Below, piece after piece: positions 3,174 to 61,563 of a stretch of DNA of 64,000 nt (the first letter of the stretch is position 1; the number at the start of each line of letters is the position of its first letter). The position numbers and the translations under genes are program-made. This DNA is from Amoebophrya sp. A120 (taxonomy: Eukaryota > Protista > Dinoflagellata), in NCBI GenBank assembly GCA_905178155.1, contig CAJINV010000005.1, positions 6,594,153 to 6,658,152 of the forward strand. The letters are read 5' to 3'. The notes beneath the pieces were generated by a model. It did no database searches. It was not told the DNA's origin and saw only the letters and a list, made by a program, of their open reading frames with translations.

Positions 3174-6100
3174 ATGACGGCGGGCGTGGAGGAGAAAACG
3201 GCGGCCGTGGCGGCGAAGAACACCGTGGAAGTGAAAAAGAACACCGCGGACGCGAAAATCAGTAAGAACACTGGCCTGCTCAAGGAACAAGCCAAGAAGA
3301 AGAAGAAGAAGAAAACGAAGGCTGGAGTTGTCAGCGAACCTGCACCCTGGCATCTGATGCTCGCGACCGAAAGTGGAACTTGTGATGCAGAAAATAACCA
3401 AATAACCGGCGCACAAGAACTGCAGTCCGATAGCAACAAAATTGACGCTGGAGAAGATGGAGTGCCGCCACCGCTGCTGACCACCACGTCGGAAGCGAGG
3501 TATCCTAGTGAAAAAAGCGGGTAGAGTCAGGGCCTTTTTGTCATGCAAAAATGAAAGTCATACTGAATTGGAAAATCTGTAATGGGCACAGGACCAGTAG
3601 CGTCCTGGGCTGCTTTTTGCGGTACTATAATGCAAGAGAGATTCATTATTTTTCGTGGACATGGACTTGGTTTTGGATATACAAGCATGGCCCGCCACAG
3701 CTGTTTTCTCTGGGATACGAGAACCTTGAGCACTATGGATCTGTCAGGATCGAAATCGTCAAAGTTGAAATGATTTTTCATGCATAAAATGCAGCCCACA
3801 AAGTGCCCGTCTTGCAGAGTAGGCAAGTGAGGCAGATTGTAAGCCTGTTGAGGGGTAGAAACTGAGGCGCTAAACTAGCATGACAAAAGGCGTCTTCCTT
3901 ATTCAAACAGCATGACAAACTGGATACCGGTTCTACCCAGATTTATCATGCGCCACTTGGAAACTGGATTTCAAGTGGCATCCATTTTATGCATTACAAA
4001 CTATTTCCACTTTGACGATTTCAAACCTGACGCTTCCATAAGCACCACGACGCCGTCCTCGAGCTCCTCGTCGAACAGCGGCTCCTGCAGCGATATCAAA
4101 TGCAAATATCGATCTGGGTCTGGAAGCGTGCAAGTTTGTCATGCTCGGTTAGCATGAATGTGAATCTCAAGGCCTCTGTCATGCGCATTACCCCAAGGGG
4201 AAGGGCCCCAACTTTCTGTCATGCAAAAACGCAGTTTGTCATTGACTTTGTCACACTGAAATCACCTCAGAAAATTGTTATGCTGAGCCGCCACTTGATC
4301 TGGCATCGTCCTCGTGATCTTTCGCCATGCAGCAGCACAGGTTCTTTCCAGACCCAGGTCGAGATTTTCATTCGATAAGCGAAGAGCTGGCCGCTGGCGG
4401 GAACTACGTCATGTCTACTTCTTCCGGGAAAGAAGTTGAGCCCGGTTTTCTAGTAGTTGGCACTTCAACTTCTGACGCTGGTAATACTTCTTATTCGGCA
4501 TCTAAAAACGCGGTTTCCTTTTCCGTCGAGATCATCCACTGTGCGTTCGAACCCGAGCCAGTGACGTTTGGGCCGCTGCGTGTGGAGATTCCCAAACCCT
4601 TTGAGACGAAGCTTTTCGGACAAGGACAGAACAATGATGATACAGCGGGAATATCAAATGCAAAAATGTCTGGGTCTGGAAGAATACAACTTGTAATGCG
4701 TATTTCAGAACACAGAGAAGTCTCTCATGCATACGTAGCAAAAGCTCCCCACTTTCTGTCAGCAAAATAGGGGACTTGTCATGCGGATTCGGCATTGCGG
4801 AAGCTTCTCGAAACCTGTGATGCTAGAGCTTCCATGCCAGACCTTCTGTGTGATGCAAAAACAGCATGACTCTTCCAGACCCAGACACTTTTACATATGA
4901 TAGGGACGGACAATCATCCACTGCGCGTTCGAACCCGAGCCGGTCACGTTTGGGCCGCTGCGTGTGGATATCAAATGTAAAAATGTCTGGGTCTGGAAGA
5001 CTGCAACTTGTCATGCTAAATCTGAAGCATGTAAAAATCTGTGTTGCATGATTACCAAAAGTCGTCCAGTTTTGACCAAGTCGGGAGGGAGTTTCTCATG
5101 CAGGATAGGCATGAGAGAGATCGCACAGAATCTGTCATGCTAGGCCCTGCATTCCAGACCTCATGGGTCATGGAAAATCTGCATGACAAATCGCGCATTC
5201 TTCCAGACCCAGACATTTTTACATTTGATAGTGGAGATTCCGAAACCCTTTGAGACGAAGCTTTTCGGACAAGGGCAGAACAATGATGATATTTTTACAG
5301 CGGGACGAACAACAACAGTTGGACTTGGAGCAGCCACTACTAGTACACCTTCATCAACCTCCTCCGCAGTAGATGAACTAGAAAAACTGCAGCAGCGAGC
5401 GCTGTATGCATTGCCAATATGTCTGGGTCTGGAAGGATGCAAGGTTTGTCATGCTTGTCTAGCATGACTCTGAGCTCTGTATCGCGTGCCCGCAAAGAGC
5501 TCCTCTTTCCTGTCATGCAAAAACGAAGATTCTCATGCGGATTACGCAACTCAGAACCACGGAAAAATTTGTCATGCTTGGCAGTGCATTACAGTGAGCG
5601 CATTGTAGTTCCCTGACTTGCATCACAAGTTTCCAGACCCAGACATATCTGCAACCCATACGCTGGAATTTTGTGCGAATTTGAAGCCAGCGGAGATAGA
5701 AGAATTGCTGGCCGCCGAAAGGAAAAGGAGAACTACTTCTACCCGTAAAAATGCAGCTGATATCCACAGGCACAGTAAATCTAAATTTGCCGCACACGAC
5801 GTACGAATGCGGTTTCTGCATGACGAGTGCTTTCTACAATGCTAATAGCAGCATGACAAGTTGTACTTCCTAATATGCTCAATAAAATTGGGAAAGTCAA
5901 CATTTGTGATGCATTTTGATGTACGTGCAGTACGGCAGATTTGTATTGCATAACAGCCAGTACAGGGGAACAGCAGCAAGGCGAGGAAGTGGATGAGATT
6001 ATGGAGGAGATTGAGAACTACTATCAGCAAGAGTCCGGTACTATCAAATGCAAATATGTTGTCATCTGGGTCTGGGAGATTGCGAGATTTGTCATGCAAG

Positions 6101-6988
6101 CTTGGCATGACTCTGAAATCTGTATTGCGTGGCCGCAAAGTAGAGCTCGTCTTGCCTGTCATGCAAAAACGCAGTTTCTCATGCGGAGTAAGCAACTCAG
6201 AATTTTTCCATGGAAAAACTTGTCATGCTTGGCAGCGCATTACAGTGCGCTCCCTATTCCCTTTCTTGCATCACAAGTTCCCAGACATCCAGGGATATTT
6301 GCGATGCATAGGTACCAGTACCATCAGTGCCGTCACCCGGCAAACCATGGCGGGCGATCAGATCCGAATCTACTTATCAAATGCAAAAATGTAGTCTGGG
6401 TCTGGAAAAGTGCATCGTTTGTCATGCACGTTTTGCATGACGCGTGAGGTCTGTGATGCATGCCCTAGCATCACAGATTATGTGAGATCTTTACCATGCC
6501 TTTTCCGCATAAGAAACTACCTCCCGGCCTTCTCAAAAGTGAACAGCTTTATTGGCAATCATGCAACACAGATTTATGTATGATTCAGATTTAGCATGAC
6601 AAGTTGTACTCTTCCAGACCCAGACATATTTGCATTTGATACTACTACGACGGGAATGATTTGTCATGCACTGGCGGACGCGAAGGCGAACAGTCAACAT
6701 GCGGGTTTCATGATCCCAGCAACAAGAACAGCATCAAGCAATGGACCATCACATGGGAGGGGTTTCATATCGCAAGAAAAAACTGTTTCACTATAAATTT
6801 GTGATGCATTTTCCCTTTGGAGGCTGGCATGGCGAATTTTCTTTGTGATGTAGTGGGACAAACTTGCGATGCAAAATCTGCAAAGTAAGTGTTTTACAGT
6901 GGAACAGTTTTTTCGTTGGATATTGCAGGAAGTGGCTGTTGGAACGGTGACCAGCTGCACGGACTTGTTCGGGGATTACTTTCTGTGA
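3174..6988 (+). CDS. Hypothetical protein with 10 introner-type introns and an internally duplicated ~37-aa segment
   Basis: ORF pieces (MTAGVEEK..., SEELAAGG..., LEFCANLK..., EEVDEIMEE..., WTITWEGFQEV...DYFL*) join in one frame when each TIR element + 5 nt is removed. Start codon uncertain; no recognisable domain. Confidence 0.7.
3501..3717. mobile_element. Introner (TATCCTAGTGAAAA type)
   Basis: Imperfect TIR; TSD CGAGG/CGAGA; frame restored. Confidence 0.8.
3734..4040. mobile_element. Introner family G (TATGG..GTCAGGATCGAAATCGTCAAAG)
   Basis: ~35-bp TIR; TSD AGCAC. Confidence 0.88.
4094..4377. mobile_element. Introner family A
   Basis: TATCAAATG..CTGGGTCTGGAA TIR; TSD AGCGA. Confidence 0.88.
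4652..4902. mobile_element. Introner family A
   Basis: TIR; TSD GGGAA/GGGAC; inverted relative of 30960-31214. Confidence 0.88.
4969..5230. mobile_element. Introner family A
   Basis: Near-perfect 30-bp TIR; TSD GTGGA; empty site at ~4582. Confidence 0.93.
5405..5660. mobile_element. Introner family A (TATG end)
   Basis: TIR; TSD CGCTG. Confidence 0.88.
5761..5952. mobile_element. Degenerate introner
   Basis: TATCC...GCATA, weak TIR, TSD lost; +5 removal restores frame. Confidence 0.6.
6042..6310. mobile_element. Introner family A
   Basis: TIR; TSD GGTAC. Confidence 0.88.
6375..6641. mobile_element. Introner family A
   Basis: TIR; TSD CTACT. Confidence 0.9.
6768..6922. mobile_element. Introner family B (TATCGCAAGAAAAAA)
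   Basis: TIR; TSD TTTCA/TTGCA. Confidence 0.82.
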
Positions 6989-7685
6989 AGACAAAGAGCA
7001 ATACTGTGAGCTGTTAAAAACAATAGCAGCCGCCTTGTACGGCTCATCCATTGTCCTTTCAACAATATGGCGCAACAACTTACGCCCTGGTGGGTGTAGG
7101 TAACTACTTGCTGCGTTTTGAAGAGTAGTTTTCTCGAAAGTTTAAGTAGTTTGTGATAGTAAAAGATCAAAGTTTCTCAGAACGCGCAGCCCCCGGTTTT
7201 GGCAGATAGTGTATGCGTTTGTTTCGTTTTGACTGTTTGAACCCGTATTTGATTCTCATTTTCCTTTATACAAGTGCTACAACTTCTGCTACTGGTACAT
7301 TAAACCCCCCGCATCGCGTTCTGTTTTCTACCCACAACGTAATCATCAATGCACTTGTAACATCAGCTCTATTTTTGTCCTCACCACAACTCAAATAGCT
7401 TTTTGCCCCTGGTGTCTCGCTGTTTGCGATATCAGTCTTGCGAACTGACAATCCCACAGTGGTTGTTCTTGAGTTCCGCTTCTTGTGCTTTCTATTCGAC
7501 GAGAGAGATGAGGAGCAATCCGAGGAGAGAAAAATTGTCATTTTGTCTCGGCCGTGCAAAATCGTGCTCGTGTTGCCTCTTGGTCAACCACAAGACGAGA
7601 AGATGACAACTTTTGTCGTGTCAATTCGTCTTTTTCTCCTGAGTGCTGTTGCGAGCGCCACTTGACGTCTGAGCAGTCTTGCGTT

Positions 7686-7783
7686 TCATAAATCGTTGTA
7701 GGTTCTTCTTGTCGGGTCCCGTCACTTCATAAATCGTTGTTGGGTCCCGTCACTTCATAAATCGTTGTTGGGTACCGTCACTT
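7686..7783. repeat. Short tandem repeat, ~27-bp unit, three copies (intergenic)
   Basis: TTCATAAATCGTTGT...GGGT(C/A)CCGTCAC three times. Confidence 0.75.
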
Positions 7784-7924
7784 GACGAATCTCGTGGCCG
7801 CATACTAGAGGCAAAGAAAGACCAACCTAGTTCTTGCCGCAAGAACTGTTGTTCCTGAAGATTTTCCAAACGGCGAGGACGACAACTACTACTGCTCTCC
7901 TCGTTGGAAGAGAAAATAAACGTC

Positions 7925-10900
7925 ATGGCAACTGCACCAGCCGCGACCTCATCCAGTGCCGCTACGCTTCCCATGCCAATGCCCGGGCCGGCGCCACTTC
8001 CCACCGGCTCTGAGCAGATCGGCGGCTCTGCGTCCTCAACCAGCGCGGCTGGAGTATTACAATGAAAAATGCCCCCACGCCCACCCCCGAACTTGAAAGC
8101 ATTTGTATTGCAAACCTTTCCAAATGAAACATTCGCCCTCTTGCATGTATCAGCATCACAGATTTCCGATCGTGAATAGCAAAAATTTGTATTGCAAAAG
8201 ATCCCAGCAAGAGCGGTGCTTGTCATGTAAGCGATGCGAAACACAACTAGAATCTGCATCAGAAAGATTCATACTCCTTTCATGCATGACAAAAAGTTTT
8301 CATTTGGAAACTTCGCATCACAAATTTTTGCAACTTTGGGGTGGGGGGCACTTTTCACTGTAATATGGAGGTGCGCGACCCGGTTCTCTTGCGGCGTCTT
8401 CGAATGTAGCGGCAGCAGGTATGCATCGCAAAAGCACCTGTTATCGTGCTCGTATAGAATTGGCCATCGCGCATGACAGATCTGGGTTCTTCCCTATATT
8501 TGGAATTAATTATTTCGTGCTGTGGAAATGTGTCGTGCAAGAAAACAACTCTAACTCACTACCTGCACGATCACAGTAGTACTTTTGCAATGCATAGCAG
8601 CTGGGTTCCGGCAAATCAACACCAATGTGCGAAGGTGTGGCGACTTTGGCGACTACTTCTTTGACGGCAGTTGGAAGGCCAGTTCCTTCGTTTCACCCCC
8701 AGGCCACCTGGACACGGAACTGCGAACGCCATGGGTACTACTTAGAGTCAGAAATTTAAACATGTAGATCAGTGGGAACGAACAAGTTTGTGATGCGCGT
8801 ATGACCACAGGGAAATACTGTGAAGAAATCGTGGATAAACATAAAGAGTTTATTCATCTTCATCTTGATGTCCTTTCACAGTACTATCATGATTAAGTAC
8901 TTACCTGCTCCGGTAGATTTAGTTGTGCCGATCTTGTTCTCTCAATACCTTACAGACGAAGACCCTGAACTTCGTACCGAGATCGGGAAAGGCCGGCCCG
9001 CCCGCTTTGTGGCCGATCGATCACGTAACAAAGACCCCGACCGTGCCGCAGGAGCCGGTTTGGGGCTACGACAAATTATCGCTGCGGGGAAATCACGTGC
9101 CGGGATACTCGGGCTTTATTCCAGGCGAGAAAGCGGAGACGATTTATGGGAGTTTACGGTCGGGAATAAGTGACCACGCGGAGGGAATTATCCTGAGTAA
9201 AAACGTACCCACACCAGAGTCAGGATGGGGATTTTGCAACACAAACCTCGGAGTTTTGTGAGTCACGCATGACAAGTTGCACTCTGCAGTGTAGTGCAGG
9301 TTAGCAAGTACAGCCGCATCACAGACTCATCTGCTCATCCTGTTCACAGCATCACAAATTCCAAAACACGATTGGAAATGGCTCTCATGCGGATGCGCAT
9401 TACAAGTCTTCCTGTCTTTGCAAATCTGCATTACAACTCTGGTGTGGGAACGTTTTTACTCAGGATAGGAATACGGCCCTACGAGGAGAAAGACGTCAGC
9501 TTGAAGCCGATTCTGGTATTAGATAGAGTGAATTTATTATCTTTTACGCAGTTCTTGCAAGACAGAGCTGGTAATCATGCGTTTATTACGTAGTTGTTGC
9601 AAGACAGATCTCATGCGCACAGGAGGGACATGATAGTCTTTCCTTCCTTCCTGCTTAGATTCCACCTTTTCCAATCCACGAGTTTTTTCTCGTTATACAA
9701 CACACAGACTTCGACGTCAAAGGATAAACAAATTTTTACAGTACAACAATCCCACGATCGGGCGGATGCCCCTGAAGAAAATCCTGAAGACCACGGATTT
9801 GATTCACACGGTGAGCGTATCACAGTCGGAAAAATCGGAAATCCTCGACGTTACATCTCTCAATCGATACAGAAAGATTATGTGCTACGTTTTTGCTCTG
9901 GCTGGGTCTCTCCGGCAATGTGAACGTAGCATATAATCGGAGTCATGGCTTTTACTATCGGAAGAGGATTTGCGTTTTTCCACTTGATTCCCGTACGGAA
10001 ATCTGGAGCCCAATCCTGGGAGTCGGTTGAAGCAATACAAAGACCACGTTCCGCCGCCAAGGATAACGCGTACTATATTTAGGTTTGGCATGCAGAAACT
10101 CTTTCAAAAATCGCATTTGTGATGCTGGATACGACCACGCATGGTTGATGACAAAAAAAAATCACCCTTCAGCAAACTGCTCCTCCACCGGTATACTTGG
10201 ATGGTCGGGTTTATCCCAGAAGAAAAAAGATACGTCTAGATCACATTTGTAATGCAAAAAAAAGTAACCACTGCAAGCACGTGCATCTAGACCTACAGCA
10301 CGACGAGACAAAAAATTTTATTGCCATAGTGTATCCCAGCCAGCATGATGCTACGGGCTCGCCCATGACAAACTTTTATTCCGTATCCGTGCATCTACTT
10401 TTGCATTACAAATGTGAAGATCTTTTTTCCGCCTGATACGATTTCCGACCTGTGGTGAACCGGAACCTAGATGGACGGAAACCGAGCTACCTGTCCCACG
10501 ATGTTTATCCAAGATAAAAATTGTCAATTAGTGTAAATCTGCGATGCAGAACATGTAAGGTAGTTGCACTTGTCATGCTGGATGAAGCGCGTCCCAGGCT
10601 GCCTGCTTTTCCATGCGTGTTTGCAACACGTGGTAACTATGCATCGCAACTTTTCTCTCTCATCCAGTACAGATTTGTGATGCTGTCAGCCCAAGATGAA
10701 AGCTGCACTAGGTAAACAGTTTTTTTCTTGGATAATGTACAGATGATCACCGGGAAAAATGTATGGAATGCTGAAGACGCAACACAAATTCTCACTTCTA
10801 TACTGAAGACGCAATATTACAAATTTTCACATCCTCTACTTTCTTCAGCATGAGGATATAAAATCGTTTGTCATGCTAAAAGTAAAAGGCCAAGGCTGCT

Positions 10901-13138: not shown

Positions 13139-16100
13139 ATGCACCAAGAACAGCAGGGGCCTGCTCCCAGGATCATGGAGACCGGTACCATGACTCCTGA
13201 GGGCAAGAACACCGCGTCGTCATCTGCTGATGCTTCTACAAGCGGAAAAACCGGGCCAGAGCGGGAGGAGCAAGAAGTAAAGAATCCGAAGCTGCCAGCA
13301 GAACTAGAAGTACATGTACACCAGCCGCAGAACAACAACGGGGCTACAGCTACCACCGTAGAGAGTACACTAGTAATAGAGGGCGCAGCGGCGCGGGCCC
13401 CTGGTCCGAAGCGAGAAAATGGTGCTGAACAAGAACAAGCCGACACTTCCTCCACCGGAGAAGTTGTTGTCACGAGGTCTACTGCAGGAGCCGAAGCGGG
13501 GGCGGCCACAGCTGGTAGCACCGCGCCAGAACCACCGACGGCTGCAGAAGGAAGCACGAGTGGTGTGGCCGCGGCACCATCTACTGCATCAAGTGCAACA
13601 AGTTCTGCAACTCCTTCATCACCGCACCACGCGCAAACCGCCTCGGAGTATTTCTACAAAAGGGACTTGGAATATGACAGTGCACAACTCCCCCTCCCGC
13701 TCATTTGTATAGCATGAACGGCAATACACGCATCAGCAAGAATGCCGGTTTTGCATGACAAATTTGCACTGGATTGTAGTGCAATTGGGGCCAGCAGAAC
13801 CTGGTCATGCAAACAGTGCCAAGAGGTAACGGGCGGATTGGGTATTTTGCATGACAAAGGAGGGGGAGGGGGAGTTGTGCGCTGTCATATGGAAATCAAG
13901 AATTCCAGCCCGCTGTTCCACAAAGTCTCCTCTTTCGAGTTCGCAGAACTCGCGAAAGCGACGCTGCAGAAAGTTTCCAGCGAGAGCAACCCGGGACTCT
14001 TTGGGGGATCCGCGACAGGAGGAAGGGATTGTGGTAGTAGTGCCACTTCTCCCGGAAACCCGGTGGGAGAAGCAGAGGGTGTTCCTTCTTCCGGTAGTAC
14101 AACAGGAGGCGTGACTTCTATGGCAGAGACGGGTCTTCGTGGTGGACCATCAGCTAGTAGCACCTCTACTAGCCGCGGAAAAATTAACGAGAGTTATAAC
14201 GTGACCACTTTACTCCGTGATGATTTCACGCACCGGTGCTTTGTGGCGAACAAGAAGCAGCAGATGGTGATCATCCGAAATCCGTATAACAACACCATGC
14301 AAGACGTGGAGCAGAGCAGCTTTCTCACCGTGGCTGCAGGGCCAGGTACTACGAGCAGTGGCGCGACAGGACAAGCAGTGGACGCATCTTCACATGGACT
14401 ACCACCAGGAGCTGGGGGCGCGGCTCCTGCAAGTAGTGCATCTTGTTTCAGTGGGACGACTTCCACCGGGACGACGCAACTAACACCAGGACATCAAGGT
14501 ACTACCACCGACAGCTCTAGTACAACTGGCCAGCCGCCAGCGCCAGTAGCTCTAGTACAACTACCGGTAGCTCTAGTACAACTGGCCAGCCGCCAGCGCC
14601 AGTAGCTCTAGTACAACTACCGACAGCTCTAGTACAACTGGCCAGCCGCCTATCGAAAAGAAAAAGTTCGTCACAGTCACAATTTTTCATTTTTCGAAAA
14701 ATTGAGAGGTGAAAAAAAAGAAATCTTCTGATGTGGAGGAAACGCGCGACCTTTTCCCCTTCGACTGCAAGGGCCTTGCATTTTGCAGAACTGGGGTGTG
14801 ACTATTTGCGGATCGGACCGCGACATAAGAGCTTTGGGGGCAGCGTGACAGGCCGAGGGAAGTACTGCCGCCGGCTTGCGCCATGTCAACCCGCAGGGGC
14901 CCCTGCGCGCTTCCCGCGCCTTTAGGCGCTATGCGCAGGGAGCAACTGCAGCGAAGCTTGGGGGCGAAGAAAAGCCGCCGCGACGTAGGTGCCGAAGCAG
15001 AACGGGGACCTCGCTGCCCTTTTTTGATCACTCTCCCGCGCCCGCCCATCTGATTCCCAGGCGGAAGCTGTGGGCGCGGGGGTGGCGCGAGAGGATGGCG
15101 CGAGAGGGTGGCGCGAGAGGGTGGCGCGAGAGGGTGCGGGCCGACGCATGAAAAAGCCCCAAAAGAATCGACCCTGTCCCGGGCGGATTCGGCTTCTTTT
15201 ACCCCTCTCGCAGACCCTCTTTTTCACCTCTCCCGAGAAGTGTTGCTAATAATCCGGCTATACTCGCCGGTAGAGGTCTACAGAGGTGGCCGAGAGGTGG
15301 CCCAGAGGGTGCGCGGGGGGTTCGCCCTTATTCGCGCAACCTCTCGGCACCTCTGTCCCCCTCTCGCGATTGCGAGCCTGTTGATTGCAGCGCGTTACCG
15401 CTCGCGCCACACCGGGAGGAACGCTCTGCCACACTGCCTCCATCAAGGTACTACCACCGACAGCTCTAGTACAACTGGTCAGCCGCCAGCGCCGGGCTCC
15501 AGTGCAACAGCTTCTAGTAGTACTTCTACATTACCTTCCAAAGCCGACCTCACCGTGTACGCGGTCCACCAAATTGTGTGCGATGAAGCGGTATCAACTG
15601 TAAAAGTGTCTGGGTCTGGAACATTCTGACACTTGTCATGCACGTTTTGCATGAGCCCTGATCGATCTGTGATATGCATGCCCTAGCGTCACAGATTTTT
15701 TCAGAGCTTCTTGATGCCTATTCCGCATCACAAATGCCCTCGCCGCGTAGCAAAAATTACATTCCTTTTCGTACTCATGCAATACAGATTTTTCTGGAAT
15801 CCAAATGCAGCATGACAAGTTGCACTCTTCCAGACCCAGACATTTTTACATTTGATAAGCGGTGATCCAAGCGCGGAGGCGGTCACAGGAGCTTGGGTGG
15901 CGAAAACGGTCCATCCTGTCGAAGGAACTGACAAAGGGGAATGGTTTGAGAAACCGGAACATTTTGTTAAACGTATTGAGAGGAAAAATCTCTCTCCCCA
16001 TATTGAAGGGGTATGTCTCCGGAAATTTGTGTTGGTGATTTGAGGTCACAAATCACATTGGTCTCGCAAGAAGACAAGGGCAGAAGCTTCCGCCATATTA

Positions 16101-36100: not shown

Positions 36101-37182
36101 CATTTCCACGGGAGTAATGGCTTAGTTTCGCAACATGGCGACTCGTTGTTGTACCACCACACCTCGCAACTCTCCAGCGGCCAGCAAACTTCAAACTCCC
36201 TGAATTGGCAGACCTCGGGGTTTCAAAGCACGTATGTCATCACCCGGGAGCAGTCGGATGTGACGGGGAATTCGAATTTGTCGGGGGATCAGGAGCAGAA
36301 TTTGAAAAATTGTAATGCGGACGAAGAAGAGGACAGCTACGAAAATTTTAAGGCCTTCGGTAATAGGTCTGATCTTGGCGCAGGAAGTTGTACGGAGCAG
36401 GGAGCTATTAACCCCGAGGTGCGAGAAAAAGCGAAGAATTATAACAACACCCTGGTAGAGGGAGGCAATGGTGGCTCTGTTCCTCGAGGTGGGATGAACA
36501 AGCATCATGAGCAACAAACGTCATCATCTTCATCACCACAGATTGCGAATTACAACACGACAGCAGCTGCTGCAAAAACTTCTACCTTTCACGGGACGGT
36601 ACTCTCTCCGGTGCTGCAAAGTAGAAGGACGACTGAAAGTTTGCTATCGACGCCGCGCTTCGGCGAAGCGAGTCCTCCTGCCTGTCGCTGCTGTTGCACC
36701 ACTTCGGCGGGAAGCTTCTCAACAGCTCCCACTTGCAAGCTTCTATTTTCACGCCGTGGGCGCAGAGTGCTGCGAGTCTGATCCTCAGCCACGGGTGCGA
36801 AAATTTGGTAAATCAGAAGCACAACTCCATGACCACGCTGATCGCCCTAGCTTACTACACCGAGACCCTCTGCATCAGCGACCAGAAGGCCACCGCCATT
36901 GCGAAGATTCTACTGGACTTCGGAGCGGATTTGACTGCTACCCGACTGGGGGAGACAGCCTTGGACTACGCAGTGAAATCCGGCAAAACGGAGCTTGCGT
37001 CTCTGCTAAGGATGGAGGAACTTGCGGCGAAATCCACCCGGGATGAGCTGGACAGATCTCTTGCTCTTGGCGGTGCAGGAGGGGCGTCAGCTGGATCGGG
37101 TTCGGGTGCTGCGGTCGGGAGCTCTGGGAGCGGATCGGGTGGGAGTGGGGGCACGGATCCGAAGCGGCGCCGGGTTGGGTAG
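33194..37182 (+). CDS. Ankyrin-repeat protein interrupted by a 1.74-kb insertion (possibly pseudogenised)
   Basis: Ankyrin-like motifs CPVAIAIQAGNYAGLDLLLKKG, SAVTIAIEGGDLNALQLMLDNGA and ILLDFGADLTATRLGETALDYAVKSGKTELASLL. GT-AG intron 33365-33515, introner 33567-33729. Frame restored by removing 34905-36678. Confidence 0.7.
33567..33729. mobile_element. Introner (TATGCATTGCAAAAGTA type)
   Basis: Imperfect TIR; TSD ACCCG/ACCAC; frame restored. Confidence 0.78.
34905..36646 (+). repeat. Diverged, introner-free copy of coding segment 16803-18768 inserted into the ankyrin gene with a 32-bp direct repeat
   Basis: ORF 34940 closely matches ORFs 16287/18115; TCGACGCCGCGCTTCGGCGAAGCGAGTCCTCC at 34873-34904 and 36647-36678. 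Confidence 0.9.
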
Positions 37183-49629: not shown

Positions 49630-51090
49630 GTCAACAGCATGTTGGGGGATTTGTTTACAGAGATACGACTTCAAAGTTCTGTATCTGTGGAGCTTTTCTA
49701 TGGTTTTTGACTCGTTGAGTTAAGTGTGCCAGGTGCAGATCGTGATATACCTTCCTAGAAAATCAACATTTTTATCTCGTGTTTCGTTTTTCTTTATTTT
49801 ATTGCCAAGAACTCACTTGTTCATCAGCGAAAAAGAAAGTCGTTCGTTATGACAGCCAAGAAAATGAAATGCACCAGAAACGAGAAATCATTGTCGTTTA
49901 TTGTCATCCTACTTTTCAGTCTTGTTGAGCTTGATTTTGTCTTCGTCCTGGATCTACTTTTCACTCTTGTACGATCTTGATAGAGCTAGATTTTGGTACG
50001 CGGAAAATCAAATGGCTTCATCGCACCACCTGAATTTGCAATGCTGATTGCCTATCAGTATACACAGAGTTTCTATAAAAATATTCTTAGATGTTATTGT
50101 TTGACTCGCCTCGGATTCAGTAGGATTTCGTCTTCTTCTTGGCGTTGCCACTTCACAATTCAAACACTCACTGTGTAGACGAGCTTATTTCAATTTCCTT
50201 CTACTAGTAGGTGTAGGATGGGGAAAGACTATTGCAATCATGTGTTGTGGCACAACCCTGAAGACTTGAGCTGCACTTGCCTTTGTCGTGAGGAGCTTGT
50301 CTAGATTTATTTTCACGACACGGGGCAGAGGACAATTTGAATTTTCCGGAGCTCCTGTGTCATCTCTGATGCAAACTCGGAACCAGAACTTCCTCCGCTT
50401 CGTGTGATAGACTTGAGATTTTTGTCTACAAAAATGATTTTCAAGCTTTTCGAAGTTTCTTGAACTTTTGCAACTTATGCCCGATTGTCTTTGACGATCA
50501 ACCACAGTAGGGATCCGCGTCCCCGCAGCAAAGACCGCCGGGCCAGCATGCAAAGCTGCGATAGTCAGTTGATACATTAATTGTTCGGAAAATTAGTCTT
50601 TTCGAACATGGTTTTATTTGTGCGCGGAAAGCTGCACCCTGTAATGGCGTTTTCTATTTTGTGGTCAGAGTTGCACGCGACATGGCGCGGACAGAGTCGA
50701 GGTCCACTTTTCACTCGATTCATCCGTCGAGAGCCATGTTTGTACTGTGACGAGCGATGGTCGTGATGGCGAGAGAGAGCGAGAGAGGGCGTAGTATCGA
50801 AGTAGGATTTCACAAGATGTCCGCGAAAAATAAGGGCGTGGCTGCGACCAAGATATTGATTCGTCTCACAGCCTCGTTCGCATGCCGCTAGAAGTCGTGA
50901 TATTGTTGCTTCACGGATGAGCAAAAAGCAAGGTCTATAAGCTTCGTGAAGCCGAAAAACTACAAAGCAAATCTGCGGCATCAAGTGCAGCGTGATGGAT
51001 ACTTATACCAGTTTGCGTGATGGTTGAAAGTTTGAAAGTAAGCCGAGATAGTGAAGTTACAAAATCTTGAAGTGAAACAACCACCAACAA

Positions 51091-54000
51091 ATGCAGCCTC
51101 CGCAGCAGAACCGCAACCGGCCCGGCACGGCGGTGGGACCGCGCAGTGCCACGCTGGTTCGCGCGGGGTTGCAGGACCAGCGACCGAGGTCCGCGTCCGG
51201 GACCAAACTACCGCAGCGCCCCCGATCCGCCGCCGCCGCGGCCGTGCTACAAAATCGCGTGAATCAGCTCGAGCAGATGCTGGACCTGCAGCGCAACGAG
51301 TACAAGGAGCGGGTGGAGCGGTGGGACCAACTGCTGAATCGCAAGTTCACCATGCCGGTTCTGGGCGCATCCGGTTCCGGTGGTCACGCAAGTGTGAAGC
51401 TCAAATCCCTCGAAGAATACGTGGCCGACGAAGAAATGAAAAATTCGACCGAAGCAGGTGGCAGGAATAATAGAGCAGCGGGCACTAGCAACGGTAAGAA
51501 CAAGGAAAACAGAAATACAGCCAACGTGGGTAATCACAACAATATCGCTATTGCTCGAAACAATAAGTTGAATCGCAACAAGTCGGCCGGGCGAAAGGGA
51601 AACAAGAGGAGTAAGCAAGGCGGACTGGTAGATGGGGGCGGAGCTGCAGCATCTTCCCGAAACAAACAATCGCACAACCAGCAGCAATATCTTGGGCAAA
51701 AGTGAGTATCGTACTCGTGTATGCAATTCTTGCGACCGTGAACAAGGTGAACCTTCTTGACAGATTTGACTTCTCGAAACATTTTAGCATGCTATTTGCT
51801 TACGCTAGTCCGATACTTTTCCTTTTGCAATGCATAAGGAAAACACGACGACCCATAATAGGATGCGTGTGGAAGGGAACAACGAGCTAAACTCCAACAC
51901 AACCTCCGTCGAGGACTCTACCAGCACCGAAGAAAACGCCGTCGCTACCATCGACGCGCTGAAGCCGCCGCCCGATATCGTGCAGCACCACTCGCACTTA
52001 TTGCTTGACGTGGAGGGTGTATCCAAGAAAAAAACTGTATTAGTGTAAGTCTTTTGGGAAAACAGCATCACAAGTTTGTCTGCAATGACAAGAAACGCTT
52101 GCTATGCGCAGATAGGAAGGCAAAACACATAGGAAGCGAGCCGATCATGCATGTCGAGCATGACAAGTGTAAACTCTTTTGCATTTTCTGCATAGGAGAT
52201 TTACACTCGCACTGTTTTTCTCTTGCATAGGGTGACGAGGAGGATTCCGCTGGAGTAGAGCAGCGGCAGATGGAGGACGGAGATCGGAATAACCACCACC
52301 CGGGGCGGCCCTACGGAACAAACACCGCGCCGTTGGGGTCCTTCACCTTCTCCAGAGACGGGCGCGACACGGATGTCGAAAACGGTGGTCTTCACACTGC
52401 TGGTGGCAACGACAACATGCAGATCGAGCAGAACAACTACGATGTTGAACCGGAATTCGGGATGGGCCCAGCGGCAGGAACTACTTCCAGTAGAAATGCT
52501 GCTACAGCAATATTACAGGGAACAGCAGCAATAGGAGGACAGCAACAGAACAATATTTATCCTGCAGCGACGTCTCAACACCTCTACAACCTCCCCTCGA
52601 GCGCCGGAAATACAACAAATAAAACGCCTTCCTCGCCAAGCTCCTACCGTGGTCAGCAGCACTTAGGAGGTGCAGGCACTGTTCCGAAATCGCAGTGCAC
52701 CACCGCCCGGTTTTCAAACGGCGCAGGGGCTATCAAATGCAAATATGTTTGGGTCTGGAAGGATGCGAACTTGTGATGCGTGTCGCGGATCAAACAAAAA
52801 TCTGTGTTGCATGACTTGCAAAAGGTCCCCATTTCTGGCCATGCTGAGTGGGCATTTCTCATGCAGAATAGGCATCACTAAGGGGCTGCAGAACCTGTGA
52901 TGCTAGGTCCTGCATTACAGACTTGGCGGACCTTGGAAAAACTGCATGACAAATCTCGGAATCTTCCAGACCCACACATGTCTGCATTCCATAGACGCGC
53001 AGGACGAGCAATTCAGCTACCGCACCCCGACGAGCGGGGCAGGAGGGGGATTTGGAGGAGCAGTAGTGGTTCCAGCTCTTATATCCAAGAAAAAAACGTT
53101 GTTAGTGTAAATTTGTGATGCGCAACATGCAAAGTAATTGCGTCTGTCATGCTTGGCATGCATCGTAGGGTCCATTAAAGGGCGTTTTCACGTACTATCT
53201 GCGCATGACAGGTTTTTGCTGTCATGCCAGACAAATTTGCAATGCTGTTCCTCCAAGAAAGTTACACCTACAATGTTTTTTTCTTGGATATCTTACAACT
53301 ACACTTGGGACAAATGTTAAAACCGCCACCAGCAGTAGCAGCAGCGCTGCGGCAAAACCGCGTGGGCAGGACGACCAGCAGGAGGCGCAACACCAGCCGG
53401 AACCGAGTCGGACGAGCAGCAGTCAGTTTCTCTTCAACACGTACGAGCCGCCTGATGAGAACAGTGCGACTTCGGATCTGGACGACGACGTGGATCCTGA
53501 CGATAATCCTGGTCAACGAAGACCTACTAGTGGAAGAAACGCTAAAGGCGGCAGGAAGAAGAAGCAGTCCTCGTCTGCGCAGCTGGCGAACAAATACCAA
53601 GCCACGGGCATCGATTTTGACAAGAAAAACAATCCCGCACAACTCGCGGCGACGCAGCGGTCCGCGGCGCGAACATTGTCCCCTAGCCCCGACACCCGTC
53701 GAGGAAGGGCCGGCCGGCCGTCCTCGAGTTCCCCTAGGGGGCCCGCGGGTGCTGGTGGTAGTAGTTCCGCGCAAAAAATGAATGGCGCCAGGGGGAGCAG
53801 TGCGAACAGGAACTCAAACTCGCCGAGTGGAGGTCCTCGTGGAGGGACGAACAAAACGGACAGGACGAACGACGACCCTGGGCCGATGCTGCGGTCGCCA
53901 CCGGGCATGCGAGACCACCGGTTGGGCAGTAATTCGCCGCCGCGGAGTATCGCAAGAAAAAAGTGTTACGGTTACACAAATAGTCCATGCAGGCCAAGCA

Positions 54001-57000
54001 AGACAGACCAGCTCTGTCATGCCGGATATGCATAGGAGCTTCGTTTCATGGGTGCTTTATTCCCTTAGGATTTCTGCATTGCAAGTTGCATTCTCTCTCA
54101 TGCAGAGAAATTTGTGTTGCTGAATCGACAACAAATGTGTAAGTGTAACAGTTTTTTCCTGTGATACGGAGTCACCGGGCCTTGCACCAAGAGCGCATGG
54201 AGGACCTATGCATTGCAAAGATGTCTCGGTCTGGAAGCATGGAGCTTGTAATGCTAGTCGTGCATTCCTGTAAAATCTGTATTGCATGACTATACAAAGA
54301 AGACGCCCTCTTTAGTCATACAAAGCACAGTGTCTCATGCGGACTGAGCATGAGAGAGCGTTCTGCAAACTTGTCATGCTTGGCTGCATTGGCAAATATT
54401 TCAGTCATCCACAGTTCAGCATCACAAGTTTCCAGAGCCAGACATATTTGCATTTGATAGGACCACTTTGCGCACAATTACAATCCCGGGTTCTACGGCT
54501 CCAACAACCACGGCCACGACGTGATGCACATGAATTTCGCGTCTACCCTATCCTGAGCGAAAACGTCCCCATTGTCATGCAGATTTGCAATTACAGGAAA
54601 ATTTGTAATGCGCACTCTTATGGAAGACATTTCCAATCGTGTTTATTTGGAATTTGTGATGCTGTAAACAGGATAAGAAAAAGGCTTTCTGATGCAGCTG
54701 TCCTTGCTAAACTGCACTACAATACACAGAGAAACTTGTCATGCGTGACTCGCAAAAGTTCTGAATTTGTGTTGCTAAGTTCCCAACTTGCCTATGGGGT
54801 GGGGACGGTTTTTCAAAGGATACACCCGACCGCAGTCGGCCGCGCCCGCGAAAAATCGGTGGACGGTGCACGCGCACAAGGAACAGATGCTATGCGTTGC
54901 AAACATGTCCTTGTCTGGATCTGGCAGATTGCAAGTTGTCATGCTGAATCTACACCATGCAATCGCAAAATAAAAATCTGTGTTGCATGAGTACCAAGCA
55001 AAAGGTGTTCGCTTTTGACCAAGTTGAGAGAGGGTTTCTCATGCAGGAAAGGCATGATAAAGACCTCAAAGAGTCTGTCATGCTGGGTTCCCCATTCCAG
55101 ACCTCACGGGTCATGGAAAACCTGCATGACAAGTTTTGCAACCTTCCAGACCCTGAAGTGTTTGCATTTGATAAAAGCAGGCCCTGAGCAATCGACCGCG
55201 GACCGCTCCCTACGGGTCGTCGGCGCACCAGGTGGCCAACCAGCGGGACAAGGACGAGTCCTACAATGCGCTCAGCAACCTGCAACAGATGTTCACCAAA
55301 GTGCACAAGGAAAATCAGGTCCTGATCCAGCAAAAGCTAAACGTGGAAACGGAATTGCGCGAGTATTTGTCGACGAAGGAAGGCCACATGGCCAAGCATA
55401 TGGATTGCAAATATGTCTGGGTCTGGAAGATTGCGAAATTTGTCATGCTAGTCTGGCATGACTCTGAACTCTGTGTTGCATGGCCGCGAAGAGCTCCTCC
55501 CCCCTGTCATGCAAAAACGCAGTTTGTCATGCGGAGTACGCAACTCAGAACCATGAACAAAACTTGTCATGCTTGGCAGCACATCATAGTGAGTTCACGA
55601 CTCCCTTTCTTGCATCACAAGTTTCCAGATCCAGACATTTTTGCATTTGATAAAGGAAATATTCGAACAACGGGATTTGGTGAAGTCCTTGCGCACTCGA
55701 CTTTACAACATGGAGCAGGATAACGTGCGCGCGACGGCGAAAGCTAAGCGGTGTGAAATATCAAATGCAAAAATGTCTGGGTCTGGTTCTGGAAGAACGC
55801 AACTTGTGATGCTGCATTTGGATGTCTAAAAAATTTGTGTTGCATGAGCAGCAAAAGGATTCTAATTTTTGCTACGCGGAGAGGGCATTTGTCATGCGGA
55901 ATAGGCATCAAGAATCCCTCAGAAAACCTGTGATGCTAGGGCATGCATCACAGATCGATCATGGCTCATGCAAACCGTGCATGACAAGTCTCAGAAAAAT
56001 CTTCCAGACCCAGACATTTTTGCATTTGATACGAAAGAAGGGCATACGAAGAAGAAATGTTCCTGAAGCAAGCGTATTTTTAGATTCTTCTTTTTGTTGT
56101 CATGCGGGATGACAAGTATAAATGCAAAAATGCATCACAAGAAAATTGCTTACTGGTGTCATAATTTTGCGCATCAGAAATCCACATCTTATATCAGCAT
56201 GAAGGAGATTATCGAAGCGTCAGGATTGAAATCGTCAAAGTTGAAATAACTTGCAATGCATAAAATCGATACCAGTTCGAAGCCCAATTTCCAAGCGGCG
56301 CATGACAAATTTCCCGAGCACCGGAATCCAATTTGTCATGCTGTTTGGGCACAGACGACTGCTTTTGTCATGCTACTTTAGCAGCTCTATTTCAAACCCT
56401 AAACAGGCTGACAGTCGGCCTCACTTGCCATCCCGGCAAGACAGGCACTTCATGCCTTGCATTTCATGCATGACAAATCATTTCAACTTTGTCGATTTCA
56501 CACCTGACGCTTCCATAGAGATCGAGACTCTGAAGCAAGTAACGGTGGAACTGCAGCGCATGAATTTGGAGCTACATTTACGAAAAGTTGCGTTGCGGGC
56601 GAGCCAGGACATAAACTGGTTGTCATGCGAATTGTCATCATGCTGGATCTGGAAATAAAGCGCCAGCCGCTTTTTTTCTCTCGCGCGCGTGAGCAAGAGA
56701 GCACCAGCAACCGGCCGCTATTGCATAGACATGACAGCAAGTTTGCTATCTATGTGTTGAAAATAATAAATTTGATGTTCTGCCTCTCGTCCGCTTTCCT
56801 CCCTTCCATACACGGAATCCCCCCAAATGAAGCTGATTGAGCAAAAGCTGTACAAGTTTCAGAAGGGCCTCACCAAACGCACGAAGGAGCTGAACGACCA
56901 GAACGATGCCCAGGATGAGGCGGTGCAGGAGATTTGGGTCCGGGTAGAGAAGGTGAACACCAAGGTGGACGGGCTCTACGCAATGACGGAAGCGGTATTT

Positions 57001-58249
57001 GGTTTGTGTTGTAGATGGGAATTGCAAAAGAAAGGCGCTGTATCATGCACTAAGATCGAAGAAAATTTCATTGAAAAACAAAGATCTGAATCAGTCTACC
57101 AAGAAGAGATACTTAATTACTTGCCCGAGTCTCGACCTACTTCTCCGTGAAACAAAATCCAGCTGCAGCAAGACCGGAATGAGGCGGGCGTGTTGCTGAA
57201 GGTCGGGCGGGAGCGGATCAAAGAGTGCAAGCAGACGTTGCAGAAACTGGCCCAAGACTTCCATACGAACTGCAACAGTATCGTACTCGTAGTATCTATT
57301 GCAACACAAATTAGCTCAGCACGACAAATGGGATTTCTCATGCTGATCGAGCTTGAAAAAGAAATTTGTCTTGCATGACTGCGATCAGTACGACGAGTGC
57401 GATACTTTTGCACAGGATGTTCCAACAATTGAAGCAAAACGCGGACGACTCGGAGCGAAAATACCAGCGAATCTTGAAGCGTCAAGACGAGGAAACCAAC
57501 AAGATCAACGCGCTGCAGCGAACGTACAGGGAGATCCTGGAGGAGGTGGTGGGCAATAACAAGTGGTACAAGCGAACGAATAAGGATTTGGAAAACGAAA
57601 ATGCGCAGTTGAAAAAGGAAAACACGGAACTGCTAGAGTCGCTGATGGCCTACTTGATGCTGAACCAGCAGTCTTCGCTCCTGAAGGGCAAGGCGAAGAA
57701 AGCGCTAGATCCGTTAACCGTCACCGCGGAAAAGAAGCGGGTGCCACCCCCGTTGGACAACCGGAAAGCGATATGCATTTTGCAAATACTTGTGTCTGAG
57801 GCTGGATAATTTGTGATGCGAAAGTTGAAGGACAGGAAGATCTGTGATGCATGGCTAGGAGTGGCGGCGCCTTTTGTGTCGTGGTGGAAGAGAGTTTGTC
57901 ATGCAAAGCCCGGTACTAGAAATCGCTTCGCAATGCTGGGATCCGAAAAATTTGTGTTGCGCTAATGCCGTACAAAGCATCGCCCTTTCATGCCACACTC
58001 AGCATGACAGGCGGCGCACTTTCAAGTATCCAGGCCCAGATCGTCGAAGATATTTGCATTGGATAAGCGAACGAGAAAGACGATGACGGCAACGCGCACA
58101 AGAGCAGCATCTCCACGCAGCCCTACCCCATCCACGAGCCGATTGACTTGCCGCCGCCGCCGGAGGGGGCGTTGCTCAGTCCACGGGTCCTGGTGGAGGG
58201 GAAAAACGTGCCGATTTTGCTTGGGGAAATTGTGGATGTGAACTGTTAG
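51091..58249 (+). CDS. Large coiled-coil/low-complexity hypothetical protein with at least 12 introners
   Basis: Coiled-coil-like exons (LQNRVNQLEQMLDLQRNEYKERVERW, LQQMFTKVHKENQVLIQQKL, NKDLENENAQLKKEN). The last exon ends GEIVDVNC* after element removal. Some introns at 56-57 kb not resolved. Confidence 0.65.
52020..52229. mobile_element. Introner family B
   Basis: TIR; TSD GGGTG. Confidence 0.87.
52731..52993. mobile_element. Introner family A
   Basis: TIR; TSD GGGGC/GACGC. Confidence 0.85.
53082..53290. mobile_element. Introner family B
   Basis: TIR; TSD TCTTA. Confidence 0.9.
53948..54166. mobile_element. Introner family B
   Basis: TIR; TSD CGGAG; similar to 42709 and 31276. Confidence 0.9.
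54207..54459. mobile_element. Introner family A
   Basis: TIR; TSD GGACC. Confidence 0.88.
54549..54822. mobile_element. Introner family C
   Basis: TIR; TSD TACCC/CACCC; inverted relative to 9189. Confidence 0.86.
54891..55173. mobile_element. Introner family A
   Basis: TIR; decayed TSD GATGC/AAAGC. Confidence 0.82.
55399..55652. mobile_element. Introner family A
   Basis: TIR; TSD AAGCA/AAGGA. Confidence 0.88.
55759..56031. mobile_element. Introner family A
   Basis: TIR; TSD TGAAA/CGAAA. Confidence 0.9.
56210..56517. mobile_element. Introner family G, inverted relative to 3734/39554
   Basis: TIR; TSD GAGAT. Confidence 0.88.
57264..57419. mobile_element. Degenerate introner (ends TACG...GATG)
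   Basis: Sub-terminal IR AGTATCGTACTCGT/ACGAGTGCGATACT; TSD TTCCA; restores DFQQLKQ. Confidence 0.78.
57772..58065. mobile_element. Introner family A-like
   Basis: Imperfect TIR; TSD AGCGA. Confidence 0.83.
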
Positions 58250-59620: not shown

Positions 59621-61539
59621 ATGCGAATCGCAAAGCAATCTTCCCGTCTCACACTCCTCCGCGAGCTGTTTCTGTTGCAGCAAGCACACGAGCAGGGCGG
59701 CAGACCAGTCGTACACGGTTACCAGGAAAACAAAAAACGACTTCGGGGAACCGCGAGAGAAGCGCGCGAGACGGAGGAAAACGCTTTCTCCGTTGTTGCG
59801 GAAGGCAATAAAAAAGGCGGTGGCAAAAAAGAGAAGAACAAGGAGGGACGAGGTAGTAAAAGAGACAAAAAGAAGGATCCAGATGAAAATCAAGAAGGCG
59901 GAGCAGGGGATGCAATTGCGGACGCGGTGGACACGCAAGATGAGAACAAGAAGACGAGGAGGAAGAAGGCCAGCAAAGGCAAGCCAACAGAGGCGGCGAC
60001 CACAGATGCAGAAATAGGGCCCGACGGCGGGGTATCAACTGTAAAAATGTCGGGGTCTGGAAGAGTATTAAACTTGTCATGCAGGTTTTCCATGACGCGT
60101 GAGGTCTGCGTCTGGAATGCGGGACCTAGCGTGACAGAGTCTGTGAGGTCTCTGCTATGCCTATTCTGCATGAGAAACTCCCTCCGAACTTGGTCGAAAG
60201 TGAACAGCATTTGGCCCTCATGCAACACAGATTTTCGCACTATCCGGATTTAGCATGACAACTTGCAATCTTCCAGACCCAGACATTTTTGCAATCCATA
60301 CGGGGCCGCAGCGGAAGTAGACAATGGAGCCTCAGCAGATGCCGATCAAGAAGCGGATAGCGATGAAAGCAGCAATATCCTGAGTAAAAACGTACCCACA
60401 CCAGAGTCAGGATGGGGATTTTGCAACACAAACCTAGGAGTTTTGTGAGTCACGCATGACAAGTTGCACTCTGCAGTGTAGTGCAGGTTAGCAAGTGCAG
60501 CCGCGTCCCAGATTCATCTGCTCATCCTGTTCACAGCATCACAAATTCCAAAACAGGATTGGAAATGGCTCTCATGGGGATGCGCATTACAAGTCTTCCT
60601 GTCTTTGCAAATCTGCATTACAACTCTGGCGTGGGTACGTTTTTACTCAGGATATAGGCGGCCGGAGGTAGGGAGAACGAGAAGAAGCAGCGCCGCAAAG
60701 CCACTACCGATAGTGGTGACGAGAACGCGAATATCAAATGCAAAACAAGTGTCTAGGAGGTCTGGAAGAATGCATGTTTGTCACGCTTCTCTGGCATGAC
60801 TCTTAAATCTGTCATGCACGTTACCCAAGAGCCGCCTTTTTCTGTCATGCAGAAACGCAGTTTGTCATGCAGAATAGGCAACACCTAGAAGCTCAAAAAC
60901 TTGTCATGCTGGGCCAGCACTTGTGGCCTTCTCATGATACGCCACCCAGCATCAGAAATTTCCAGACATCCAGGGATATTTGCATTTGATAGCGAACGAC
61001 GATCAAACGGAACGAGAAGGAGCTGCACCAGCAGCGGACGAAAACTCCTTCGCAGCCAAGTGGCAGAACGTGCGGAAAAGAGCGAGTGAGGGTATGACCT
61101 GCTCAAACGTTAGAATCTCAAACGTTACAATAGAATCTGAGACTTGTCTTGCATATGTGTATAAGCATGACAGACTCGCAGACCGTTCCACTTTCTGCAG
61201 TACAAATTTCGGCATATTGTAGTGCGGTTCGGGACTCCGGAACTTGTCGCGCGCAGTCCTATGAGACTCGGCTAGATCATGCACTTCTTGCATCACAGAT
61301 TTCGACATCGGGGATGAAGAAATACTCGCGATGTTTTCGCGGTTCTGACCCGATGCCGCTCCAGCGCCTGCGGAGGCTTGCTTCCCCAGTGATAATGGAC
61401 AATGGCAATGTCGGTGCGGTTGTTTTAGCATCACAGATTTCGACATTCTATTGCAGCGTTTGAGATTGTAACGTTTGAGCAGGTCATAGGGGGCTGGCAG
61501 TCCTTCAAGGACAGCGCGTTGTCCAGGCTCGGCAGCCTG
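59621..61539 (+). CDS. 5' part of a hypothetical Lys/Glu-rich protein with hydrophobic N-terminus; continuation lies past the retroelement
   Basis: MRIAKQSSRLTLLRELFLLQQ... continues across four introners to EGWQSFKDSALSRLGSL, then meets a fifth element end. Confidence 0.6.
60033..60300. mobile_element. Introner family A
   Basis: TIR; TSD CGGGG. Confidence 0.9.
60376..60654. mobile_element. Introner family C
   Basis: Near-perfect TIR; flanks AGCAA/TAGGC do not match, but +5 removal restores frame. Confidence 0.88.
60732..60991. mobile_element. Introner family A
   Basis: TIR; TSD GCGAA. Confidence 0.88.
61093..61488. mobile_element. Introner family F (TATGACCTGCTCAAACGTTA)
   Basis: ~32-bp TIR; TSD GAGGG/GGGGG; internal repeat GCATCACAGATTTCGACAT twice. 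Confidence 0.9.
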
Positions 61540-61563
61540 TATCCATTGCAAATATATCTGGGC
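61540..61563. mobile_element. Left TIR of a family-A introner interrupted by the LINE
   Basis: TATCCATTGCAAATATATCTGGG directly followed by RT coding sequence. Confidence 0.72.

Follow-up and report, generated by a model that had tools for sequence, protein, structure and literature searches.

A 64,000-nt stretch of the genome of Amoebophrya sp. A120 (contig CAJINV010000005.1, positions 6,594,153 to 6,658,152 of the forward strand; hereafter the window, numbered from its first letter) carries dozens of short elements that begin with TAT, end with ATA and interrupt its genes. Transcripts lack these elements and, with each of them, one copy of a 5-nt target-site duplication (TSD). They are the introner elements that Farhat et al. 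2021 (PMC7789003) described in the same organism. The accessible parts of that paper give inverted repeats starting with TAT, direct repeats of 3-5 nt over the boundaries, a length of about 240 nt, many families, RNA-seq support and no internal transposase, and leave splicing and mobilisation unresolved and the cut position "variable". The TAT terminal inverted repeat (TIR), a 3-5 nt repeat, non-canonical removal, families and the A120 genome are all found here, consistent with the identification made in a preliminary description of the window. The elements and the phenomenon are thus already known in this genome; the candidate new points are a fixed cutting register and a motif shared across families. 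The reading we favour, at slightly better than even confidence, is that these non-autonomous inverted-repeat introners are cut in a fixed register by the spliceosome, guided by a hairpin in place of GT-AG. All genome-level counts below refer to the window and to a metagenome comparison set of 417 TIR-defined elements in about 550 kb of loci from another assembly.

Self-BLAST and TIR scans led to the curation of 68 TAT…ATA elements (3501-61488; 119-814 nt) across eight plus-strand genes modelled by hand, namely RAD51, an EEP-domain gene, an ankyrin gene, a coiled-coil gene, a very large RRM-like gene and three others; one more element, at 61541, is broken off by a long interspersed nuclear element (LINE). 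These figures agree with the earlier estimate of about 64 elements resembling miniature inverted-repeat transposable elements (MITEs), in at least seven families. The start is TAT in 64 and the end ATA in 64 of the 68, both being exact in 61. In 53/68 elements the TIR score is at least 8, whereas 0.6% of TAT/ATA pairs drawn at random score that high. Scanning the whole window blind, for TIRs only, gave 52 matches, of which 28 are flanked by a perfect 5-nt repeat; ten shuffles gave 2-11 matches each, none of them with a perfect repeat. BLAST grouping resolved eight multi-member families and 20 singletons in the window (13 multi-member families once the metagenome loci were added), and most families are found in both orientations inside plus-strand genes, the largest in a ratio of 16 to 6. 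The same families recur in the metagenome contigs; viral contigs searched with the TIR motif gave no match. All 68 curated elements lie in the 28.3 kb of exon and none in the 11.8 kb of intergenic or untranslated (UTR) sequence, which is odd for a DNA transposon; the curation relied on gene models, and the blind scan returned two intergenic matches, both weak and without repeats. This exon-only location could reflect targeting or loss outside genes.

The flanking repeat is specific to a length of 5, as had been claimed. Identity between the flanks is 89% at length 5 and 26-32% at lengths 2-4 and 6-9; the 5-nt repeat is perfect in 33 of the 53 strong-TIR elements and matches at 4-5 of 5 positions in 54/68. 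In the metagenome set it is perfect in 287/417 elements, with other lengths at chance. Five pairs of filled and empty paralogous sites in the window (elements 4969, with its empty site at 4567, 18039, 21016, 22380 and 23166) fit only a deletion of the element plus 5 nt, with 0-4 mismatches per 35 nt versus 7-15 for other lengths, which identifies the repeat as a true target duplication; a sixth pair (element 4652) was not alignable. Element 60376-60654 is 96.8% identical to 9189-9467, yet lacks a target duplication (0/5). Its reading frame survives removal of 284, 281 or 287 nt, making it a natural test of hairpin-measured cutting.

Removal from transcripts was followed in assembled contigs from two runs, X1 and X2, representing two samples of one study; their RNA status is presumed, with support from contig sequence ending in poly(A) at 50514 and from zero cover at 50692-50940. 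Within 48700-56150, all 13 contig joints skip exactly the element plus 5 nt, the excision rule first proposed from the letters of the window. The joints include both RAD51 junctions singled out at that time (PIGGH/VLAHA and GR/FCKIYDSP). Element 40807 shows a skip of 257 nt (252+5), two contig gaps spanning two and eight further elements fit the rule to the base (30=30 and 1095=1095), and one loose contig end crosses 56075 and 56210. Altogether 26 of the 68 elements have RNA support, and the other 42 rest on reading frame, orthologue or TIR/TSD. When 12 elements, each with 5 nt, were deleted from the EEP gene (38132-46648), the A120 protein P0001 was recovered with 1606/1606 residues identical, and the length sum agreed; the predicted restoration of the GDLN motif is thereby borne out, P0001 being an annotation and so dependent on the transcriptome. 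RNA contig pieces and length sums cover 11 of these 12 elements. At the RNP1 junction of the RRM-like gene (GYC/FLNF), restoration is supported by the reading frame only. Raw RNA runs X8 and X9, which bear the same species label, yielded 110 and 118 partial reads that lie on element sequence only, with no exon match; these reads match the elements at 95-99% and have foreign flanks, so that these families are also present at other sites or in another strain.

The same elements are present in DNA. Run X5, which is unlabelled but DNA-like in its flat depth across introns and intergenic DNA, and which may be the assembly's own data, contains an unbroken contig of 6480 nt that shows no differences from the window and holds four introns skipped by the RNA contigs; other X5 contigs continue from exon into element. 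Since the elements are kept in the DNA-like run and skipped in the RNA-like contigs, they are removed at the RNA level, with one TSD copy, by RNA splicing, DNA excision being at most a minor route. They are not gone from the expressed DNA in the manner of ciliate-type internal eliminated sequences.

A perfect duplication lets the cut slide over six positions, and mismatched copies limit it. Let k be the number of left-copy bases kept in the exon. RNA joints give k of at least 3 at 51688, 52731 and 54891, and the match to P0001 gives at least 3 at 43257. At 55399 the repeats differ at position 4 and the transcript keeps the left copy's fourth base (k at least 4). At 39554 they differ at position 5 and the transcript keeps the right copy's fifth base (k at most 4; X2 piece 39860-40801, no other letters, and gap sum). 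Element 44609, inside the GDLN motif, allows k of 2-4 by comparison with P0001, k=0 or 1 giving R and k=5 giving N instead of G-D; for the EEP gene overall, P0001 is recovered exactly at k=3 or 4. A loose RNA end at 56075, in a GT-AG intron without TIRs, fixes k=4 exactly. These eight informative junctions all intersect at k=4 and none contradicts it. One fixed register is therefore likely, in which the intron reads N-TAT…ATA-NNNN, with 1 nt before TAT and 4 nt after ATA. In this register the first T of the element falls at intron position +2 in 68/68 cases, partly by definition of the element start. No alternative letters appeared in contigs at mismatched TSD positions at a 20% share threshold. 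All nine predominant non-canonical A120 ends in Table S4 of PMC7789003 (GT-AC, CT-AG, AT-AG, GT-CG, GT-AA, CT-AC, AT-AT, AT-AC and TT-AG) have T in second place, and the five A25 rows examined begin with TT.

The bases beyond this T appear to be free. GT-AG occurs in 7/68 elements in the k=4 register and in 9/68 in some equivalent register; the count rises to 14/68 when GC-AG and GA-AG are included, leaving 54/68 without GT/GC/GA-AG in any register. Among the 13 RNA joints, two can be read as GT-AG, one as GA-AG and ten as neither in any allowed register. The elements mostly lack the GT/GC-AG termini of U2-type introns, and the claim that they are non-GT-AG introns holds with the reservation that the seven do read GT-AG at k=4. 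For composition tests, 173 of the 417 metagenome elements could be oriented, and the 164 with a repeat matching at least 3/5 were joined with 64 from the window. Across these 228 target sites, G stands at +1 in 74 (background 33%), GT-AG occurs 9 times versus 6 expected, and there is no G/AG bias. A weak excess is seen of A at -2 (68/228, p=0.045); the exon-start base (R5) is unbiased.

Folding predictions show TAT paired with ATA in 53/66 introns and the ends paired in 60/66. Among 14 consecutive RNA-observed introns, GT-AG at k=4 is found in 2/2 without TIRs and 0/12 with TIRs (Fisher p=0.011). The two TIR-less introns, 48788 and 56074, begin with GTAT, as do 29895 and 56995, which are likewise GT-AG in the k=4 register by frame or orthologue. 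The fold z-score is -5.0 for element 55399 and +0.4 (no hairpin) for the TIR-less intron 56074. At least one plain GT-AG intron, at 33365-33515, does not belong to the elements; like the plain GT-AG intron at 8735-8955, it lacks TAT/ATA ends and contains one copy of the motif TGTNWTGC.

That motif, not listed in the preliminary description, has a density (either strand) of 13.2 per kb within elements, compared with 0.35 for exonic and 0.42 for intergenic sequence, and is present in 65/68 elements and 36/38 families. With each family represented once, there are 12.7 same-strand motif pairs at a distance of 31-33 nt, whereas shuffled sequences give 1.3 (at most 5). Such a spacing corresponds to three helical turns, suggesting a DNA-binding protein common to all families, which would argue for a single mobiliser. 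No autonomous partner and no DDE-type transposase or integrase was found in the window or the 550 kb of metagenome loci. Of six long TIR pairs followed up, those read turned out to be chance pairings or elements carrying a non-coding insert. The interval 2331-8527 of metagenome locus L045, considered as an autonomous element, proved to be two short elements flanking ordinary genes.

These observations can be assembled into a conditional sequence of events. A DDE-type transposase or integrase, probably binding TGTNWTGC sites three helical turns apart, would insert the element with a 5-nt staggered cut. In the pre-mRNA the TIRs would pair and present the ends. The element's first T would then serve as intron +2 and be the single base of the 5' splice site to be retained; +1, -2 and -1 would be supplied by the target site and hence be free. 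Since 1+4=5, the exon would be restored exactly after any insertion, whatever its orientation, which would explain the invasion of coding sequence. Where the TIR decayed, the intron would persist mainly at targets reading NNAG/G, becoming a regular GT-AG intron with its register unchanged. The retained +2 U and the register shared with GT-AG introns point to a relaxed spliceosome, and the catalyst, by our estimate a little better than an even bet, would be a spliceosome without U1. In A120, 83/89 spliceosomal proteins and U2, U4, U5 and U6 were found and U1 was not detected, according to PMC7789003, and in Fritillaria the U2 spliceosome can process non-canonical TIR/TSD introns (PMC11282704). 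The suggestion that splicing is structure-guided and independent of GT-AG is plausible as to guidance by the paired ends; separateness from the spliceosome is not favoured. We hold more tentatively, with somewhat less than even confidence, the wider proposition of one genome-wide code, N-TAT…ATA-NNNN, whose cuts are set by a U1-less machine at 1 and 4 bases from the terminal hairpin, with no regard to +1, -2 and -1; in which this geometry matches the 5-nt TSD left by one transposase acting through the shared TGTNWTGC array; and in which any family in any orientation becomes a perfect intron and decayed copies become GT-AG introns.

Several points weigh against the spliceosomal, fixed-register reading. 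With +1 G and GT-AG at background, +2 U is the sole residual spliceosomal signature; it belongs to the transposon end by definition and had a chance of about 1 in 6 of landing at +2. Position +5 is C in 38/68 and G in 23/68, and C at +5 fits the standard pairing with the U6 ACAGAGA box poorly. No branch-point consensus is visible in a logo of the 68 elements, and the 5' site sits in a stable predicted hairpin. The shared register is weak evidence for shared machinery, since rescue to GT-AG at k=4 needs one lucky 5' base. As to the register itself, no single TIR-bearing, non-GT-AG element fixes k=4, the basis being one case of k at least 4 and two of k at most 4; registers ranging between 3 and 5 remain compatible, and with k=3 the intron ends would read GT-AG for 49398 and GA-AG for 44609. 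The RNA evidence consists of assembled contigs, with the sampling described above. Codon-likelihood polarisation of 27 mismatched metagenome TSDs carried little information on the register: position 5 favoured the left copy in 7/9, opposite to the k=4 expectation but with small differences, and the other positions gave about half. A comparison aimed at GC-to-AT drift of the intronic copy likewise gave a flat result.

The most serious alternative keeps the elements and the register and has them removed by a separate, non-spliceosomal endonuclease and ligase that measures from the hairpin, as proposed for the nonconventional introns of Euglena. The lack of G/AG bias in the 228 target sites, the pairing of ends in 60/66 folds, the function of elements in both orientations and the non-detection of U1 (PMC7789003) would all suit such an enzyme, as would the Euglena code N3-CDG…CH'G-N5-6, likewise set at fixed spacers from a paired motif and with other factors suspected (PMC12501133). 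We nevertheless consider it rather unlikely: the register retains +2 U and coincides with that of the RNA-confirmed GT-AG introns 48788 and 56074, an identical geometry is spliceosomal in Polarella (bioRxiv 2020.10.14.339549), and hybrid ends with GT only or AG only, common here, are rare in Euglena (PMC12501133).

A cut that slides within the 5-nt duplication from intron to intron, as Farhat et al. drew it, with only the total of element plus 5 nt fixed, appears improbable. Most junctions do allow several registers, k=1 would give GA-AG at 54207 in addition to the k=3 cases above, and automated calls in the 22 Dataset rows examined, of 58 A120 families listed by Gozashti et al. 2025 (PMC12130899), show mixed TSD and splice modes. 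Against this stand the agreement of 8/8 informative junctions at k=4, the T in second place throughout Table S4, and the absence of alternative contig letters at mismatched positions.

Excision from DNA before transcription, which the TIR/TSD anatomy typical of DNA transposons might suggest and which 807 uninspected joints of run X5 leave some room for, is very improbable in view of the X5 contigs that run through introns and from exon into element, the retention of 417 elements in a second assembly and the fact that Amoebophrya is not known to have a separate somatic nucleus.

Comparison with known systems places the elements as follows. Class 12 introner-like elements of Polarella glacialis (Roy et al., bioRxiv 2020.10.14.339549) share with them a 5-nt TSD whose last base is +1, a first element base at +2 and a 3' site inside the TSD; unlike those of A120, which require no particular target sequence and function whichever way round they lie, they depend on NNAGG/NAGGH targets, G(C/T/A)-AG ends and a single orientation. 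The accessible text of that preprint has no mention of Amoebophrya. The Euglena introns (PMC12501133) resemble those of A120 in a paired terminal motif, fixed spacers, free terminal bases and a suspected MITE origin; they follow N3-CDG…CH'G-N5-6/R, compared with N1-TAT…ATA-N4, require an exon-start purine, for which A120 shows no requirement, leave as circles and belong to an unrelated lineage. The A120 elements do not carry the Euglena code but do have paired ends at a fixed distance from the cuts, so that the two work alike without common membership. Fritillaria borealis introns (PMC11282704, PMC13326754) are TIR/TSD-bearing, MITE-derived and non-GT-AG in bulk, as in A120, but prefer AG-AC or AG-AT ends and retain U1, whereas A120 ends are N-T…NN and U1 is undetected. 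With MITEs and TIR DNA transposons (PMC12130899) the elements share short length, TIRs, TSDs, non-coding content and both orientations; the A120 rows examined there give the superfamily as Unknown. A search that covered openly available text found neither a fixed register nor the TGTNWTGC motif stated in print; subscription papers, theses and figure images, including Fig. 3 and S19-S25 of PMC7789003, lay outside it and may bear on the matter.

Table 1. Positions of introner elements and related introns in the window (k as defined in the text)
Feature	Positions	Strand	Evidence and remarks
Gene 1 (ATG 3175)	3501-3717, 3734-4040, 4094-4377, 4652-4902, 4969-5230	+	TIR/TSD
Gene 1, continued	5405-5660, 5740-5952 (weak, ends uncertain), 6042-6310, 6375-6641, 6768-6922	+	TIR/TSD
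Gene 2	8055-8365, 8420-8596 (GT-AG in 1+4 register), 9189-9467, 10212-10438, 10506-10734	+	TIR/TSD; frame for first two
Large RRM-like gene (17 elements, 13673-31498)	13673-13889, 15592-15857, 15974-16270, 18039-18301, 19360-19581, 19662-19880	+	Frame
Large RRM-like gene, continued	21016-21278, 21342-22057 (composite), 22380-22700, 23166-23448, 24891-25080, 27589-27805	+	Frame
Large RRM-like gene, continued	29896-30059 (decayed, GT-AG), 30212-30491 (GYC/FLNF), 30555-30817, 30960-31214, 31276-31498	+	Frame
Ankyrin-repeat gene	33567-33729	+	TIR/TSD, direct repeat 3/5; family match to metagenome elements
EEP gene (12 elements, 38274-45614)	38274-38541, 39238-39517, 39554-39860, 40807-41058, 41955-42233, 42709-42917	+	P0001
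EEP gene, continued	42962-43173, 43257-44070 (composite), 44127-44408, 44609-44761, 44914-45241, 45363-45614	+	P0001
RAD51 intron 1	48789-49002	+	Decayed, element-like, starts GTAT; repeat 4/5; GT-AG at k=4; RNA joint 48784 to 49004
RAD51, PIGGH/VLAHA	49070-49331	+	RNA joint 49066 to 49334; skip 267=262+5; GT-AG in no register
RAD51, GR/FCKIYDSP	49398-49541	+	RNA joint 49394 to 49544; skip 149=144+5; GT-AG possible at k=3
Coiled-coil gene	51688-51836 (k at least 3), 52020-52229, 52731-52993 (k at least 3), 53082-53290	+	RNA joints, element+5
Coiled-coil gene, continued	53948-54166, 54207-54459, 54549-54822, 54891-55173 (k at least 3)	+	RNA joints, element+5
Coiled-coil gene, continued	55399-55652	+	RNA joint 55397 to 55657; k at least 4; A25 orthologue has same Q
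Coiled-coil gene, continued	55759-56031	+	RNA joint 55754 to 56033; skip 278=273+5
TIR-less GT-AG intron 56074-56197	56075-56193	+	TAT at +2, ATA at -7 to -5; loose end behind 56073 in X1 and X2
Coiled-coil gene, 3' part	56210-56517 (RNA loose end), 56579-56810 (decayed, TT..CG), 56996-57158 (decayed, GT-AG)	+	
Coiled-coil gene, 3' part, continued	57264-57419, 57772-58065	+	
Gene 8	60033-60300, 60376-60654 (no TSD), 60732-60991, 61093-61488	+	TIR/TSD; open frame
5' end of further family-0-like element	61541-61563	+	Sequence; ends where LINE-like reverse transcriptase frame runs

Removal of elements plus 5 nt leaves an open frame of 427 aa in gene 1 (10 elements) and open frames of 1117 and 2531 aa in the large RRM-like gene, for which a homologue search gave no match. 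The same search with the coiled-coil gene returned the A25 orthologue P0002, with which the junctions of the 3' elements 56210-58065 are consistent, and two distant matches, an A120 protein not being among them. GT-AG introns with inner TIRs at 57279 and 51707 were dropped in favour of the ends 57264-57419 and 51688-51836. An Rfam search gave no matches. In RAD51 (47582-50514) the N-terminus is extended by a long low-complexity stretch, and the 3' UTR runs for about 890 nt up to the poly(A) at 50514.

Other rearrangements were seen in and around the elements. Unrelated inserts of 450-700 nt lie inside elements 21342-22057 and 43257-44070 and at 5001-5972 of metagenome locus L047; element 43257 is removed whole despite its insert, which indicates that interior length is flexible. 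A partial family-0 element without a 5' TIR lies at 194-419, near the window start. In the large gene, two long and mutually related insertions (14651-15440 and 20086-20943) have an element-like start, a single TIR end and direct-repeat flanks of 41-70 nt. In the ankyrin gene, 34904-36649 is an 84%-identical copy of 16803-18768 that lacks element 18039 and is bounded by 38-nt direct repeats (34873-34910 and 36647-36684); it may have been captured long ago by a retro- or repair-mediated route. The LINE-like reverse transcriptase open reading frame at 61479-63725 (PF00078, E 3.6e-26), meeting the broken element at 61541, appears from the sequence to be a retroelement inserted into an introner.

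How more than 40,000 A120 introns are spliced without GT-AG, and apparently without U1, is the question posed by Farhat et al. (PMC7789003). If true, a single register would turn variable borders into a testable code predicting every intron end in the genome, and the fit of the splice geometry (1+4=5) to the TSD length would account for the cost-free invasion of exons. The cross-family motif would provide a handle on the missing mobiliser.

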